NCBI GenBank assembly: GCA_043818275.1
Contig: JBDRFY010000030.1
Span: 1-12,021, forward strand
Reading direction: 5' to 3'
DNA: 12,021 bases
From: a bacterium
GTDB taxonomy: Bacteria; Babelota; Babeliae; Babelales; JAUWHS01
Made by a program: the position numbers and the translations under genes. Shown one piece after another: positions 4,534 to 11,732 of the stretch. Positions within the stretch are counted from its first letter, which is position 1. Each line of letters begins with the position of its first letter. The notes under the pieces were generated by a model. That model saw only the letters and a program-made list of their open reading frames with translations. It did no database searches and was not told where the DNA came from.

Positions 4534-5628
4534 TTACGCAATTTGTGTTAAACTTGCAAAAGCTTTTTCAAGTTCTGTTCTTAGATTTGTAACTTCTTCT
4601 TTTTCCCATAAAGATTTATCTTTGCGAATAAATGTTGTTTTATCAATTCTGTTGTCAAGTTTTCCGATTGGAAGATAATATTCTTTTCCGTGAGCGTTAA
4701 CAGTAATTGTATTTGGTTTTTTAGAATTTTTTGCCAACCAGTCCATATCATCACAACCGTAATCAGAAAACATAACAGATCTCGCGACTCCATGATTTAA
4801 AATTGAACCTGGATCTTTTGGATCAGCTCGTTCTTCATTTTTCCTTCGTGATTCTTCAGGTGTTACCCAAATGTAAAAAATCGATGCTTTTTCAAGTATC
4901 TGTGGACTTAATTGGGAGTAGGCATATTTATATCCATAGGGATCGGGTAATGGCATTGGCGCGCAATCAGCGCCTCCTCTTGCAAATTCAATTACAATAG
5001 TTTTTTCTTTTAAGTTTTTTGCTCTTTCAATTTCTGCGTTTTTTTCATTTAATAATTTTGCGGCATCTTTTTCTACATTTTTTTCTATTATTTTTCTGGT
5101 TTTTGAATCCAGCTTACTCAAAAGCGCTTTTCCACCCGACTTAATTCTTGCATCATCCATTCGGTCAAAAAGCCACAATGCCGCAGACTTGGGATTTTCT
5201 ATTTTTTCATTAACAAGATCATCATAATCCTTGTTAATTAATTGCATTAAAGTTCCCCACTCTCTTTGATTGCGAAATGAAAATGCCGGAGCCAAAAAAT
5301 ATTCGCCACGTTTTCCGAGGCTATTTAATGTTTCGCTAATTCTTCGCATCATGTGAACATAAGGAAAATCATCAAGTTGTACGGTTGGATTTATTCCAAA
5401 TTGTTCTTTGCATTCTTTTTCACTTAAACTGGCCAAATATTTTCGCGCTTCAGATTTTCCGGAGGCAGGAAGCGCATTTAAAAGTAAAATGTCGATAGAT
5501 TTTGCTTTTTGTATTTCCTGTCTTTGTTTAACTGTTTTTTTAAAAAAATTAATATTTTTGGAATTTAAGTTTGATAATGTTGCCATGCAAAAAAGCATCA
5601 ATAATAATTGACTGTTTTTTATGTTCAC
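4534..5628 (-). CDS. Hypothetical protein with P-loop (kinase-like) motif and signal-peptide-like N-terminus
   Basis: 364-aa ORF; ILLLNALPASGKSE Walker A-like, TIVIEFARGG Walker B-like strand, IFYIWVTPEESRRKNEER lid-like motif; hydrophobic N-terminal stretch. Confidence 0.75.
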   Translation of the reverse strand: MNIKNSQLLLMLFCMATLSNLNSKNINFFKKTVKQRQEIQKAKSIDILLLNALPASGKSEARKYLASLSEKECKEQFGINPTVQLDDFPYVHMMRRISETLNSLGKRGEYFLAPAFSFRNQREWGTLMQLINKDYDDLVNEKIENPKSAALWLFDRMDDARIKSGGKALLSKLDSKTRKIIEKNVEKDAAKLLNEKNAEIERAKNLKEKTIVIEFARGGADCAPMPLPDPYGYKYAYSQLSPQILEKASIFYIWVTPEESRRKNEERADPKDPGSILNHGVARSVMFSDYGCDDMDWLAKNSKKPNTITVNAHGKEYYLPIGKLDNRIDKTTFIRKDKSLWEKEEVTNLRTELEKAFASLTQIA

Positions 5629-5731
5629 TAACTTTTCCTTTCTTTTAAAAAATAGATAAAATAGACGTTTTAAGCGGTAATAATATATTTACTTTATGTT
5701 TTAAGCAAGGTCTTTTTTTGTGGAGATTGAA

Positions 5732-6157
5732 ATGAAAAATAATAATTTTAAAATCGAATTTTTTGATTATGTTCCAGATGATATTTCTACATTTGCGTAT
5801 GAAGAATTTAAAAAACACAATATCAAACAAATTGGTTATTTTGGAATTTTTCAATGGTGTTTTGTTGCAAAAGAGGGTGAAAAAATAATTGGCATTGCTA
5901 CTGGTAAATTAATTTTTGGTGGTTTGCATGTAAAAGATCTTGTTATTGCTTCAGAATTTAGAGGCAAAGGTATTGGCACAATGTTATTGCAAAAAGTTTT
6001 AAATTATGGAAAAGAAAATAAATGTAAGTTTGCATATTTGGAAACATTAAGTTTTCAGGCTCTGGATTTTTATAAACGCTTTGGATTTGAAGTTGATTTT
6101 GAACGTAAGGGTTATGATGAAGGAATAACTCTGTATTATTTAAGTAAGGAATTATAA
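5732..6157 (+). CDS. GNAT-family N-acetyltransferase
   Basis: LVIASEFRGKGIGTMLL acetyl-CoA motif A and LETLSFQALDFYKRFGF motif B; GGAG RBS upstream of ATG 5732 (GTG 5720 is an alternative start). Confidence 0.92.
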   Translation: MKNNNFKIEFFDYVPDDISTFAYEEFKKHNIKQIGYFGIFQWCFVAKEGEKIIGIATGKLIFGGLHVKDLVIASEFRGKGIGTMLLQKVLNYGKENKCKFAYLETLSFQALDFYKRFGFEVDFERKGYDEGITLYYLSKEL

Positions 6158-6184
6158 ACTTTTCTTGTCATCCTGAACTTGATT

Positions 6185-6429
6185 TACTACTGTCCGAAGT
6201 GTTTGAAATGCTTTTGAATAAGCATGTAATTTCCCCTCCCGTTCGCCCTGAGGAGAAATTTTGAAAAAATTTCGTCTCGAAGGGTTTTCCAAATAAAAAA
6301 TTAAATTTTATAAGGAATATCCTTCGAGACGCTCTCAAACGCTTACGCATTTCGAGCTCCTCAGGACGAACGGATTGGGAGTTAAAATATTCGATTAAAA
6401 CAATGGTTTTTAAACTTCGGACAGTTATG
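6185..6429. mobile_element. MITE-like element copy 1 (245 bp) with 9-bp target-site duplication
   Basis: Ends TACTACTGTCCGAAGT (6185-6200) and ACTTCGGACAGTTATG (6414-6429), 13/16 complementary with a 12-bp perfect core; flanked by AACTTGATT at 6176-6184 and 6430-6438; no transposase. Confidence 0.85.
6239..6373. repeat. REP-like doublet (family B variant) inside MITE copy 1
   Basis: CCGTTCGCCCTGAGGAG (6239-6255) pairs with CTCCTCAGGACGAACGG (6357-6373, 16/17); CGTCTCGAAGG (6273-6283) pairs perfectly with CCTTCGAGACG (6321-6331). Confidence 0.85.
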
Positions 6430-6533
6430 AACTTGATTCAGGATCTCTATGTGGGATTAATTAAGGCCACGAAAAAAATAAGAGTTTAAAAAAATTAGAT
6501 TTATATTAAATTAACGAGACCCTGAATCAAGCT

Positions 6534-6805
6534 TACTACTGTCCGAAGTGTTTGAAATGCTTTTGAATAAACGTAAAATTAATCCTACCCGCTCGTCCTG
6601 AGCGAAGTCGAAGGATCACGAGCGGCAAAATTGATTAAGTAAAATTATTGCTATTGTAAAAAAAATGCGATAAAAAAATTACAATTCAATAAATAGTATT
6701 CATGATTTTAACGCTCGTAATCCTTCGACCTTGCTCAGGACGAGCGGGTGGACTTAAATGAATGCATAATAGAAACAATGTTTTTCATAACTTCGGACAG
6801 TTGTG
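6534..6805. mobile_element. MITE-like element copy 2 (272 bp), no target duplication
   Basis: First 37 nt identical to copy 1 (6534-6570 = 6185-6221); right end AAACAATG...ACTTCGGACAGTTGTG resembles copy 1; TIR 14/16; flanks differ (AATCAAGCT vs GTTAGGGAC). Confidence 0.85.
6587..6749. repeat. REP-like doublet (family B) inside MITE copy 2
   Basis: Arms 6587-6624 and 6712-6749 are reverse complements at 35/38 nt (CCCGCTCGTCCTGAGCGAAGTCGAAGGAT core) around an AT-rich spacer. Confidence 0.88.
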
Positions 6806-6904
6806 GTTAGGGACGAAGGTGACTAGCCTCGGGTGAGGCGCGTTTCGCGCCATAACCCGTGGTAAGTAAAATACCAAACATTATCCGCCCCATTTTATGG
6901 GGCG
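6806..6904. repeat. Single truncated arm of a family C-like compound hairpin repeat
   Basis: Same order of parts as 2629-2721: GGGACGA..TAGCC, a long stem (6826-6863, with GGCGCG-TTT-CGCGCC at the tip), AT-rich spacer, then hairpin CGCCCCAT-TTT-ATGGGGCG (6886-6904). Confidence 0.6.
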
Positions 6905-7007
6905 ATGGGATTCATAAATTTTGTTAATTTTTAATTTCCTGATTTGATTACAAATAAACTTGTCAAAGTAAGTATGCTACAAATAAAATTTGACTAAAAA
7001 TCAAGAA

Positions 7008-7055
7008 CCGCCTACTTTTGTATTTCTATGTATTAGAGAGTAGGCGGCTTTTTTT
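7008..7055 (+). terminator. Intrinsic terminator-like hairpin upstream of murF
   Basis: CCGCCTACT (7008-7016) / AGTAGGCGG (7039-7047) followed by CTTTTTTT; loop unusually long. Confidence 0.55.
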
Positions 7056-7085: not shown

Positions 7086-8495
7086 ATGCATTTAAATTTA
7101 TCCTTTATAACGCAAAATTTTTCACAAGTTTCATTTTTAAATTTACCTAAAAATTTAAATCTGGCTGTTGATATTTCAATTGATTCAAGAACAATTAAAC
7201 CTGGCCAATTTTATCTGGCATTAAAGGGCGAAAATTTTGAAGGGCATCTGTTCATTAATGATGCTCTAAAAAATGGAGCCAGAGGTATAATAATAAATGA
7301 AAATCAAAAAAAACATCTTGAAAAAGTTAATAATAAATTTTTAGATGAAATTATTTTTTTGATTGTGGAGGATACACATAAATTTTTATTGGATTTAGCG
7401 CATTTATGGCGGCAAAGCTTTGACATTCCGGTTGTTGGTATTACCGGTTCAGTTGGCAAAACAACAACAAAACAAATGCTCGCTAATATTTTAAAAACAT
7501 CAAATATTAATTCTTTCATTTCTTTTAAAAATCAAAATAATTTAATTGGTCTTCCCTTAAATATTTTGAAATTAACCGATGAATATAAAGTTGCGGTTTT
7601 TGAATTGGGAATAAGCCGGCCAGGGGAAATGGAAATTTTGGCTGATATTTTGCGGCCAACGATTTGCATAATTACAAACATCTCTTCGGCGCATGTCTCT
7701 GGCCTGGGCAATCTTAAAAAAATTGCTGAAGAAAAATTAAAGATTTTTAAGTTTTTGAAAAATGATCAAATAGGTATTTTGTGGGGGGATCAGAATTTAA
7801 TAAAAAAATCCTTTAATCATCCGGTTGTTAAATTTGGATTTAAAAAATCAAATCATATTCAGGCCAGAAAAATAAAACTTATTTCAACTGAAGACAAAAA
7901 AATACAAGTTTCGTTTGAAATGTTTTTTTATCAACAAAGATTTCAGGTTAATTTAGCCATTGGTCATTCAGGATTTGTAAATAATGCGCTTGCAGCTGCC
8001 AGTGTTGCGCATTTTTTGGACATAGATTTAAAAACAATAATAGATTCACTTGAGAGTTATTCCGGTTTTGAGCAACGCTTTGAACAAGTTGAATTAAAAA
8101 ATAAAAAAGGTTTTTTAATTAATGATTGTTATAATGCATGTCCACAAAGTATGAAAGCTGCAATTCAGGCTTTTGATGAAATTAAAAATAATGGTCCAAA
8201 GATTGCAATTTTAGGAGACATGCTTGAATTGGGTAAAAAAAAGCTTTATTGGCACAGGCAGATTGGCCGCCTGATTGCCAAAAGTAAAACCATAACTAAT
8301 TTAATTTTAGTTGGGCAATGTAGCAAAGTGATTGCGCAAGTTCTTCCTTTTTCAATTAAAGTTGAAGTTGTAAACGATTGGCATGAAGCCAAAAATATTT
8401 ATTCAAAATTAATAAATCAAAAAAATAATTTAACTTTAGTAAAAGCATCCCATGGAATTGAGCTTTATAAATTGGTTCAGGAATTTATTCAGTAA
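7086..8495 (+). CDS. murF: UDP-N-acetylmuramoyl-tripeptide--D-alanyl-D-alanine ligase
   Basis: IDSRTIKPG, ALKGENFEGH, GITGSVGKTTTK P-loop, NNLIGLP, NNALAA, INDCYNACPQSM, ILGDMLELG, LVKASHG. Confidence 0.93.
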   Translation: MHLNLSFITQNFSQVSFLNLPKNLNLAVDISIDSRTIKPGQFYLALKGENFEGHLFINDALKNGARGIIINENQKKHLEKVNNKFLDEIIFLIVEDTHKFLLDLAHLWRQSFDIPVVGITGSVGKTTTKQMLANILKTSNINSFISFKNQNNLIGLPLNILKLTDEYKVAVFELGISRPGEMEILADILRPTICIITNISSAHVSGLGNLKKIAEEKLKIFKFLKNDQIGILWGDQNLIKKSFNHPVVKFGFKKSNHIQARKIKLISTEDKKIQVSFEMFFYQQRFQVNLAIGHSGFVNNALAAASVAHFLDIDLKTIIDSLESYSGFEQRFEQVELKNKKGFLINDCYNACPQSMKAAIQAFDEIKNNGPKIAILGDMLELGKKKLYWHRQIGRLIAKSKTITNLILVGQCSKVIAQVLPFSIKVEVVNDWHEAKNIYSKLINQKNNLTLVKASHGIELYKLVQEFIQ

Positions 8496-9383: not shown

Positions 9384-9935
9384 ATGGAGCAAGAAGTTTT
9401 ACGGGAAACTTTTGAACAGCAACAAAGTATCATTAGATATCTTTCAGCATTACCACATAAGATTTTACAATTTCATGATCTTGATGGTCTTGCTCAGATG
9501 ATTTTGCATGAGCTTGCGCACAAGCCGGCATTTAATTTAAAAAGAGCAACATATCTGGTTGATAATCCAGACTTTGATCATTTGATTGGCGTTGCCGGTT
9601 TTGAAGAGCAAGAATGTCATTTGCACAAAGTTGATTTGTGGCAAAGTCCTGATTTATTTTCAAATGATATGCAGGAGGCAAATTTTCATAATGATATTAA
9701 AAAGTTTCTTAAAAATAGTCTGAAAAAAAATGATATAAATCTAAACAATTCACAAGAGGTTTCTGGGTTGGGGCATTTTTTGGGCATGAAAGAACCGGAT
9801 TATTTTTCCTGGAATATGAAACATGGTAATCATGGAATTTTGCTTTTTGATAAGGGAGAGCATGATTTGCCAGAATGGAAGCGAGAACTTTTAATGAACG
9901 CGGCGGCTCTTTTAAGTTTGTGTAGTATTTTATAA
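9384..9935 (+). CDS. Hypothetical protein, possibly GAF-like fold
   Basis: 183-aa ORF with a purine-rich RBS (GAGGGGAG); helix-helix-strand start and terminal GILLF strand plus helix are reminiscent of GAF domains (inference). Confidence 0.75.
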   Translation: MEQEVLRETFEQQQSIIRYLSALPHKILQFHDLDGLAQMILHELAHKPAFNLKRATYLVDNPDFDHLIGVAGFEEQECHLHKVDLWQSPDLFSNDMQEANFHNDIKKFLKNSLKKNDINLNNSQEVSGLGHFLGMKEPDYFSWNMKHGNHGILLFDKGEHDLPEWKRELLMNAAALLSLCSIL

Positions 9936-11732
9936 TTTTGTAAAAATGATTTTTATATTATCAAAAGATCCATTTTTTTGTCCGGTTAATTTTAAGCAGG
10001 GCTCAATTTTTCCATATGATTCAGAAAAAAATCCATTCGATTTTTCAAATTTTATATCTGAATATATTTTCAAAATTTCTTTTTTATCTTTTTTTATTAA
10101 CCAATAATTTTTTTGCTTTTCCAAAATTATTTTAGGGTGAAATATAAAATTCCATTCAATATCAAGATTTTTATTAAATGAATCATAAATTTCCAGTGTC
10201 TCTTTATCTGGATTATGAATTAATTTTCGATAAAGATTATTTGTATGATTTGAAAGAATTATATTATTTTCTCTATGTTCTATTGTTGCAATATCATTCT
10301 GTTTTTTCCTTGGTAATTGAAACAAATCTTCGAATTTACTTTGTTTTTTTTCAAAGAACGTATTATGACTTTGATAACTTCTGAAATAATTTCGGGCAAA
10401 AGAATTAGCTGTATAAACATATGTTCCTGGATCTACCAGAATTGGTATTCGATCAACACTTAAAGTGATGCTTAATTCATCCTGATGAAAATGACCTGTT
10501 GGTTGTTTTTTATTGAATGTTGGATGGCGAAACGTTATGTGACAATTATTTTTTTTAATAATTGTTAATCCAAAATTAGGATAGTGGGAATAATTTGATC
10601 GCTCGAATCCTTCGACTACGCTCAGGACGAGCGGGGGGCAATTTTTTTTTATATCCGTAAAAAATTGTTTTTTTGTTTTATATTTATTTTGAATAAAATT
10701 TGGCAAAGAATCCTTTCTTCGCTCGTCCTGCCTGCCCGTCGAAGTGCCGCCGTCTGGCGGTACGAAGACTGGAGCGTAGTCGAATGATAGCGAGCGATCA
10801 TCTAAGATCCTTCCGCTATCGTTATCTCCAATTTGTACAAAATTACCTGATTGATCGGTGCAATCATTTATAAATCTAATCATTTTGTTAAATTTTTCAT
10901 AAAAATGTTCAGGTAATTTTATATGATTGTTTTGGCAGAGTATTTTGAGATGCCAAAAAATTTCAGTTACAAATTTGTGATAATTTGTTGATCCTTCGTA
11001 ACTTGTTCCATCATCCTGAATTTGTTGATCAAATTGTTTTAATAATTTTTTAATAACCCATTTTTGTTTTTTTAAATTTTTAAAAAAAATTGTTAAATAA
11101 AAATATCCAATTAAATCAGATAAATAATGATTGTTTGGTTTATCTGATTCTTCAAAGTTGCCTTCAAGATAAATCATGTGTTCATGAAGAGAATTGGTAA
11201 ATTTTTGCAAAAAATCAGGTGAAATTGTTTTTGAATTTTTAAAAAATTGAAAAGCATAAATCCAATTTATTGCACGAATTGCAACTTCCATCGGACAAGC
11301 CCAATTTACGCCGAGCAAAAATGGATTATTATCAATCCAGTTATTTACTTGTTTTTGAAATTCTTGTGCGTTTTTTTCATCGTTTGTTTTGTGATAATCT
11401 TGTCCTAAGGAATATAAATTCTGAAATCGAGATTTTTCCCATGGAATTTTTATATCGGGATGGTAATCGAAAATATTATTATTTTTTACTGATTCTATTT
11501 TAATATCAGAGAAAAAAAGTAATTTATTTCCCCATGTCTTTGCTGCTTTTACAGTGTTGAAATCTTTTTGCCAACTTAAATCACATTTGTTTTTATTTTT
11601 TTGTAGGATTTTTTTTTTGAATTTAAAAAGGAATAACTTTTTTTGAGCTTTATTTTTTATTCTTTTGATTGTTCCAATTGGTCCGAGTTCAATTAATCTA
11701 TTTAATCTTTTGATAATATTTGTTTTATTCAT
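9930..11732 (-). CDS. Heparinase II/III-family protein carrying an in-frame palindromic insertion
   Basis: DIKIPWEKSRFQ, NWACPMEVAIRAINW, NNHYLSDLIG, EGSTNYH, IGDNDSG, GHFHQDELS, DPGTYVYT, RSYQSHNT motifs; 600 aa uninterrupted. Confidence 0.88.
   Translation of the reverse strand: MNKTNIIKRLNRLIELGPIGTIKRIKNKAQKKLFLFKFKKKILQKNKNKCDLSWQKDFNTVKAAKTWGNKLLFFSDIKIESVKNNNIFDYHPDIKIPWEKSRFQNLYSLGQDYHKTNDEKNAQEFQKQVNNWIDNNPFLLGVNWACPMEVAIRAINWIYAFQFFKNSKTISPDFLQKFTNSLHEHMIYLEGNFEESDKPNNHYLSDLIGYFYLTIFFKNLKKQKWVIKKLLKQFDQQIQDDGTSYEGSTNYHKFVTEIFWHLKILCQNNHIKLPEHFYEKFNKMIRFINDCTDQSGNFVQIGDNDSGRILDDRSLSFDYAPVFVPPDGGTSTGRQDERRKDSLPNFIQNKYKTKKQFFTDIKKNCPPLVLSVVEGFERSNYSHYPNFGLTIIKKNNCHITFRHPTFNKKQPTGHFHQDELSITLSVDRIPILVDPGTYVYTANSFARNYFRSYQSHNTFFEKKQSKFEDLFQLPRKKQNDIATIEHRENNIILSNHTNNLYRKLIHNPDKETLEIYDSFNKNLDIEWNFIFHPKIILEKQKNYWLIKKDKKEILKIYSDIKFEKSNGFFSESYGKIEPCLKLTGQKNGSFDNIKIIFTKL
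10596..10800. repeat. REP-like doublet (family B) inside the heparinase-family coding sequence
   Basis: Arm 10596-10633 (TGATCGCTCGAATCCTTCGACTACGCTCAGGACGAGCG) is complementary to 10720-10730 + 10773-10800 and closely matches 6712-6746. Confidence 0.88.
10731..10772. repeat. 42-bp GC-rich hairpin element interrupting the family B arm
   Basis: CCTGCCCGTCGAAGTGCCGCCGTCTGGCGGTACGAAGACTGG splits CGCTCGTCCTG|AGCGTAGTCGAA; internal stem GTGCCGCC-GTCT-GGCGGTAC; length is a multiple of 3. Confidence 0.8.

Follow-up and report, generated by a model that had tools for sequence, protein, structure and literature searches.

The targeting of REPs by IS elements is well established, and insertion of IS4 elements at the axis of the palindrome is part of this literature (PMC3184786 and PMC10969869 among the sources, as far as their accessible text goes). 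The closest described system is ISRm22/ISRm16 of Sinorhizobium meliloti. In the accessible parts of PMC1525189 and PMC2266710, it resembles the elements studied here in its IS4Sa-type transposase, in inserting at the axis of a REP palindrome and in having hybrid copies with unmatched duplications; the end core CA-nnn-CTGTCCG is also common to both. It differs in protein sequence (~25% identity) and in its REP family, and the mobile copies described here are gene-less and carry REPs as cargo. Conserved left and right target arms of ISRm22 were noted by De Palmenaer et al. 2008 (PMC2266710). The repeats of ISRm22 were given as 6 bp by Tobes and Pareja 2006 (PMC1525189), whereas we measured 9 bp in two S. 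meliloti IS4Sa copies, which have CAGGGCTGTCCGG ends and lie at the centre of a palindrome or hairpin. One record annotates these copies as ISRm16-family, and they are presumably ISRm22.

A MITE of a REP-targeting IS110 element and a REP-containing MITE are also known already. MITEPpu9 of Pseudomonas putida (PMC12288879, accessible text) is likewise the non-autonomous companion of a REP-targeting IS, but it belongs to the RNA-guided IS110 family, has no terminal inverted repeats and carries an sRNA gene. In Coxiella burnetii, the MITE QMITE2 (PMC5896051; 150-190 bp, direct repeats of 7-11 nt) likewise includes a REP and is itself targeted by IS. It differs in that the accessible part of the paper names no transposase and reports no REP-axis insertion, and it carries one GTAG REP, in contrast to the several exchangeable doublets or nuclease cassettes found here.

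The host repeat of the present elements reads TGTC-ATCCTGAA-N5-TTCAGGAT-CCA/CTC and frequently forms inverted pairs. It shares with the CGTC REPs (Di Nocera 2013, PMC3733652, accessible text) the TGTC tag, an 8-bp stem starting with AT, a 5-nt loop, a CCA-like tail and head-to-head dimers, which places it among CGTC-tagged REPs. The Ssn GIY-YIG/SRM cassettes (Chenal 2025, PMC11893778) resemble part of the cargo described below, namely single-domain GIY-YIG genes of 97-99 aa flanked by such hairpins. The SRM pattern as printed in the accessible text of PMC11893778 had no exact match in the genome, and the host site of the first element described below, emptied of that element, fails to match it with 1 mismatch allowed. 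The accessible parts of PMC3733652 and PMC11893778 report no repeats or cassettes within IS4 ends. Our literature search, which covered openly accessible article text, found no IS4-type MITE that targets CGTC REPs or carries REP-GIY-YIG cassettes. Axis targeting is a known, published habit of IS4Sa elements, and the gene-less, REP-laden nested form is apparently new.

A REP doublet with two MITE insertions

We analysed a stretch of 12,021 nucleotides (the window), which is contig C30 of a bacterial assembly of 1.33 Mb (30.8% GC, 92 contigs, 94% complete). The feature sits between a GNAT acetyltransferase gene and a Mur ligase gene that we take to be murF-like. Its parts are as follows:

5720-6157, + strand: GNAT acetyltransferase gene; the REP doublet lies downstream of its stop codon
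6166-6184, + strand: host REP 1, left half, of family A with TGTC tag and ATCCTG arm; its last 9 nt are the duplicated 9-mer
6185-6429, + strand: MITE copy 1 of interior type I (245 bp); four more type I copies have 85-90% identity
6239-6373, no strand: cargo of copy 1, an inverted REP-like pair with arms 6239-6255 / 6357-6373 and inner arms 6273-6283 / 6321-6331
6430-6447, + strand: 9-bp duplication, second occurrence (6430-6438), with the right arm of host REP 1, CAGGATCTC; spanned by the X1 contig 6235-6503
6448-6515, no strand: AT-rich spacer within the host REP doublet (inverted repeat I5); intact doublets stand elsewhere, e.g. C50:40110/40215 and C62:59341/59447
6516-6533, + strand: left half of host REP 2 (mirror arm GAGACCCTG) with the 9-mer AATCAAGCT (6525-6533); the matching right half follows 6805 in run X2
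6534-6805, + strand: MITE copy 2, interior type II, 272 bp, with ends 6534-6549 and 6790-6805; hybrid as assembled; type II pieces on C1, C59 and C60
6588-6748, no strand: cargo of copy 2, inverted pair 6588-6625 / 6712-6748; the same hairpins flank a GIY-YIG gene at C75:30805
6806-6903, + strand: right part of a family B repeat, a different repeat found beside Y1 transposase genes
7086-8495, + strand: Mur ligase gene, naturally preceded upstream by the ftsK-like gene of C59

The two host REPs form an inverted doublet, 68 bp apart, and intact doublets of the same kind occur on C6, C50, C53, C56, C62 and C90. Host REP 1 reads TGTCATCCTG[N9]CAGGATCTC around copy 1, a CGTC-type REP hairpin with the insertion at its axis. 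The 9-mer AACTTGATT flanks copy 1 on both sides (6176-6184 and 6430-6438), in agreement with the preliminary description of this locus, which held that copy 1 had duplicated the central 9 bp of the host hairpin. Both junctions are present in contigs of public run X1 (6082-6193 and 6235-6503), the independence of which from the source sample is uncertain. The ends of copy 1 lie at 6185-6200, with the outer 4 nt decayed to TACT, and at 6414-6429; the full 16-bp end is CAYAACTGTCCGAAGT. The copy 1 region folds into a single long hairpin (z -9.2), and its cargo also exists in an end-less version at C27:11376-11523. The sole ORF of at least 60 aa in copies 1 and 2 is a 60-codon antisense frame, and both copies have the form of MITEs: short, bounded by TIRs and without a transposase.

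An Rfam search of the window returned zero matches. Further observations in the window concern other genes and repeats. The minus-strand frame 4534-5628 encodes a 364-aa protein with no Pfam match, whose ALPASGKS we read as a P-loop-like motif, and the plus-strand frame 94-843 encodes a 249-aa protein with a MutS_V match under the cut-off and a charged, coiled-coil-like tail. A stand-alone nested palindrome with type III interior and without IS ends lies at 2620-2860, between aminotransferase and permease genes; its 54-nt arms are 96% complementary and recur on either side of the Y1 transposase gene at C36:2823. A type II-like REP doublet at 10590-10800 is situated in frame within a heparinase II/III-like gene (9930-11732, minus strand), where it adds ~65 residues between the two Pfam domains of the protein.

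The right end of copy 2

Copy 2 starts at 6534, directly after the equivalent 9-mer in the mirror arm (GAGACCCTG followed by AATCAAGCT), as had been described. The extent first given, to 6549, captured this left start, but the copy runs on to 6805. The left junction of copy 2 is real, and the copy genuinely inserted into REP 2 of the doublet. We rejected a tandem duplication of copy 1, as the two interiors are of different type, though their first 36 nt are identical.

The right flank of copy 2 is GTTAGGGAC (6806-6814) instead of AATCAAGCT, so that no duplication exists as assembled; the following 6815-6823 reads as a partial target half-site. This GTTAGGGAC forms a duplication with the one beside another copy, which lies on contig C59. 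The terminus of C59 consists of a gene that we take to be ftsK-like, then GTCCC-GTTAGGGAC, then a type II end, and the window holds the other end, GTTAGGGAC and murF. The ftsK-like gene and murF are neighbours in three of the four searched genomes having the gene (G119, G120 and G005, but not G139). The right junction is thus that of the ftsK-murF copy, which makes copy 2 hybrid at its right end. The earlier caveat that copy 2 might prove to be a tandem duplication or a misassembly therefore applies by half, with a hybrid right end and a real left insertion.

We consider the right join in the window to be probably a misassembly rather than a product of recombination. A real chromosomal rearrangement between two type II copies, which would leave the rest of our reading unchanged, is a lesser but appreciable possibility: hybrid copies with unmatched duplications are known in 3/9 ISRm22 copies (PMC1525189, accessible text), and contig C30 is unbroken through the repeat. 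Two observations argue against it. Several contigs end 139-144 nt inside the element, indicating that the repeat troubled the assembler. Moreover, a 327-nt contig of run X2 is identical to 6541-6805, with the variant end that only copy 2 has, and runs on from 6805 into AATCAAGTTCAGGGTGAC, that is, 8/9 of the duplication plus an arm complementary to CCCTG, the expected REP half; this run is shallow and may represent another strain. In the source assembly itself we found no right flank of the kind expected for copy 2. Positions 6825-7040 are without coverage in all four public runs, and we gave this gap no evidential weight.

Target sites in the source genome

A search of the source genome with the core ACTGTCCGAAGT (at most 1 mismatch) gave 25 matches, of which two chance-like ones (C18:2669, C62:41032) and one flankless end were dropped, leaving 22 flanked ends. 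In total, 23 real ends lie on 15 contigs and represent at least 13 copies, counted by eye. The motif ATCCYG (at most 1 mismatch) stands exactly 9 bp outside the end in 16 of the 22 flanked ends, or 19 by eye, against a background rate of 0.0059 per position (binomial ~1e-31, though the ends are not independent). The three additional family A ends show a 2-T slip, a 1-nt loss and 2 mismatches, respectively; among the remaining three, one retains the 9-mer only and two lie in another repeat. Tabulated in this way, the flanks show a fixed register and not the random sites without 9-bp duplications that would have spoken against targeting.

Six copies are complete in this genome. The C27 copy and copy 1 have a perfect 9-bp duplication and the C6 copy has one with a 2-T slip, while C30 copy 2 and the C50 and C71 copies have none. 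Ends on broken contigs pair up by 9-mer (C60/C1, C83/C57 and C59/C30). At the off-target C59/C30 site the repeat is exactly GTTAGGGAC, 9 bp, with mismatches on either side, which excludes duplications of 11 or 13 bp and settles for 9 bp the choice that the preliminary description had made over 11. The apparent 11 bp arises because TG terminates both the host arm and the element.

Empty family-A REPs, suggested earlier as a comparison, number ~27 (32 pattern matches, ~5 of them chance-like) and are paralogous only. By-eye counts give ~12 occupied REPs of ~39, and with ~30% of these REPs occupied, one doubly hit doublet is unsurprising. Site-specific targeting, first proposed from the two neighbouring copies, is thus carried by the genome-wide register, and the double hit is weak as its proof.

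At orthologous sites we found no family-A REP that was empty, and G119, a genome of the same genus, lacks those REPs too. Its orthologous intervals at C50, C71 and C6 (3/3 tested) and at ftsK-murF are short, without REP and MITE, and its GNAT orthologue has no repeat downstream; six exact family-A sites are present elsewhere in G119. As REP and MITE are both missing from these intervals, both layers were either gained in this lineage or lost in G119. The flanks of the C50 copy mirror each other and its two ends share one mutation, while the genes around it are collinear in G119; this suggests local arm-to-arm conversion. Large-scale recombination at C50 and C71 was rejected, since the flanks are collinear in G119. 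Mirror-image rather than direct-repeat flanks, as in this C50 copy (L147, G000:C50:25416-25688), were also recorded at L031:1338-2632 (G155). Viral contigs contained no REP-plus-end junction.

A probable autonomous IS4-type partner in a related genome

We searched 261 genomes of the phylum with the ends only and obtained matches in 12; all 13 ends given by a pattern containing the host arm were recovered by this search. G119 carries an autonomous element of 1258 bp (C130:3719-4976), both ends of which are CACAACTGTCCGAAGT, identical over 16 bp to the MITE ends. It is placed after GGATCCTG and AAACAAGTT in the same REP register, and the contig stops after AA, which truncates the far flank. Its 388-aa transposase matches NF033592 (IS4) at 168.5 bits (cut-off 115) and contains DUF4372 and DDE_Tnp_1. 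Residues D121, D192 and E303 and the YREK signature (Y296-R299-E303-K310) are invariant in 21 aligned relatives; alignment and tree hold 21 of 30 sequences, and the tree has no other IS4 subgroups. The ends and REP target in common with this element support the family named in the preliminary description, IS4, and a DDE transposase predicted from sequence to act in trans; the autonomous IS with the same TIRs that it had proposed to look for exists in G119.

Named plasmid matches include ISRel1, ISGme2 and ISRm16 (23-28% identity), all of which are listed in IS4Sa (PMC2266710, accessible text). Table 1 of that paper gives IS4Sa a size of 1150-1750 bp, CA------T ends and duplications of 8-10 bp. 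The G119 element fits in its 1258 bp, CA ends and 9 bp; it has T at position 7 and C at 9, so the T position of the table is not matched literally. The C59 end equals the 5' end of the G119 IS over 25 nt, and both type II ends resemble that 5' end. L036, an 80% relative, has the same ends and lies in a GTCA-tagged hairpin.

In the source assembly, which is 94% complete, the G119 protein had no tblastn match and NF033592 found nothing over the cut-off, so that current activity of the MITE is only putative. Three DDE_Tnp_1 loci of this genome were rejected as the partner because their ends are unrelated, and no DUF772/IS1182-type gene was found in it. No solved structure matched the transposase by sequence. 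Other IS in the genome (L001, L002, L003, G000:C33:18482) comprise an intact 294-aa DDE element with 18-bp ends, presumably IS982-like, two split-frame elements, presumably IS5-like, and an IS200-like Y1 gene.

Targeting in related elements

The strict motif was present at 31 of 44 flanked ends from 10 related genomes and one metagenome contig, and four further ends lie in GTCA-tagged hairpins with a 10-nt centre. These counts omit a single G034 match, two foreign ends without flank and duplicate loci. A perfect 9-bp duplication was found in 7 of 10 complete copies elsewhere. None of the 7 ends in G137 is at the strict motif, and one complete copy there occupies a non-REP site. The specificity is thus not absolute, as G137 and the one family-B site in the source genome show.

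We fetched 80 metagenome relatives and examined 36, most of which have CAYnnnTGTYCG-like ends; nine have an exact 9- or 10-bp duplication, and many lie mid-palindrome by eye. L037, L039, L040, L044, L052, L057 and L060 encode related IS4 transposases, each in its own palindrome family with 9-10 bp duplications, which suggests a clade with diversified arm preference.

What the transposase probably reads

The reading that we consider very likely is that a MITE with IS4Sa-type ends sits at the axis of a CGTC-type REP with a 9-bp duplication, having probably been moved in trans by the matching DDE transposase, predicted to recognise the arms of the REP and not its centre. The central 9-mer varies among sites (AACTTGATT, AATTTATTT, GGCTTGACC, GACTTGATC, AACGTGATT, CCCCCGGAT) and the arms are constant, which favours read-out of sequence. 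A transposase dimer would contact both arms (GTCATCCYG / ATCCYG), which are separated by 9 bp, and cut in staggered fashion around the hairpin loop. The long self-complementary copies may later recombine and homogenise their arms, giving rise to hybrids.

Recognition of shape, in which the transposase would accept an extruded cruciform or a single-stranded hairpin regardless of sequence as long as the stem has 8-9 bp and the loop 5 nt, appears unlikely. It would accord with the relatives at 33-44% identity, which by eye also lie at the centres of unrelated palindromes, and with the axis insertion of ISRm22 (IS4) and ISPsy8 described by Tobes and Pareja (PMC1525189, accessible text). However, every relative retains its own arm sequence on both sides, and among 146 perfect GC-containing 8-bp stems in the genome (family A included) family A alone takes insertions at its axis. 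In the family-B case the insertion is off the hairpin axis but in register with a GTCA-type half-site: among eight family-B repeats, the occupied one alone has a 6/9 half-site at the correct spacing, and the remaining seven score 2-3 of 9. As the target is palindromic, arm read-out and cruciform recognition are inseparable in silico, and this off-target clue is a single case.

Loose insertion with survival only in REPs, or spread of REP and MITE as a unit by the Y1 or GIY-YIG enzyme of the REP, is very improbable, because selection cannot fix a one-base register, the autonomous IS keeps the same register, and 9-mer, orientation and interior differ among copies, each fitting an intact REP variant, despite the gene-dense genome, the 9-mer, orientation and decayed TACT end shared by C27 and copy 1, and the joint absence of REP and MITE at the orthologous G119 sites.

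REP doublets and nuclease cassettes as cargo

The source genome has three interior types, all of them REP doublets that also occur without ends. Type II arms flank the GIY-YIG gene and type III arms the Y1 transposase gene mentioned above. Six further interiors, from G137 (2), G140, G148 and G149 (2), are also REP pairs, so that 9/9 distinct MITE interiors are REP pairs and no REP-free MITE was seen among the nine types; by eye, two autonomous elements have no such cargo.

In two elements sharing these 16-bp ends, an entire hairpin-GIY-YIG-hairpin cassette lies between the ends. The G148 element (L011:888-1516, 629 bp) lies in a family-A-like REP and is flanked by a perfect 9-bp duplication, and the G149 element (L125:265-821, 557 bp) has unmatched 9-mers. 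Their cargo genes encode 97 and 99 aa, match PF01541 over the cut-off and have hairpins on either side, which makes them predicted Ssn-like single-domain GIY-YIG genes. The G149 cargo contains intact family-A targets, and L024 (2260-2584) holds a MITE in a REP behind the end of another element. Nested ends, with an element in a REP 50-70 bp inside another end, were noted at L024:2260-2584 and at L020:1501-1582 and 2480-2561.

REP doublets or REP-nuclease cassettes may become enclosed by IS ends and then be carried along. The enclosure could have come about by insertion of a cassette into a minimal MITE, by double hits around a cassette, or by copying of an end across a hairpin. We tentatively propose, as an idea that may well not hold, that REP doublets and REP-GIY-YIG-REP cassettes are packaged time and again between IS4Sa ends and carried to CGTC REP axes, a DDE route of spread and nesting.

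Four small GIY-YIG genes of another type were also noted (G000:C50:67836, C18:26387, C21:10479, C6:11653). By eye, three of them follow tRNA-like 3' ends, some with GC-rich hairpins.

Implications

Nested repeats of this kind break, and probably mis-join, metagenome assemblies. The prediction for the 388-aa protein-only transposase is that it hits a 21-bp palindrome with a free 9-bp centre; this is testable and may serve site-directed insertion. The proposed packaging offers a route for the movement of CGTC-type REPs and small nuclease cassettes, for which the accessible text of Di Nocera 2013 (PMC3733652) gives no dedicated transposase. If it is true, cargoes bearing target REPs would seed the future landing sites of the element itself. 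An uncharacterised repeat family is now tied to a concrete enzyme and a target rule.
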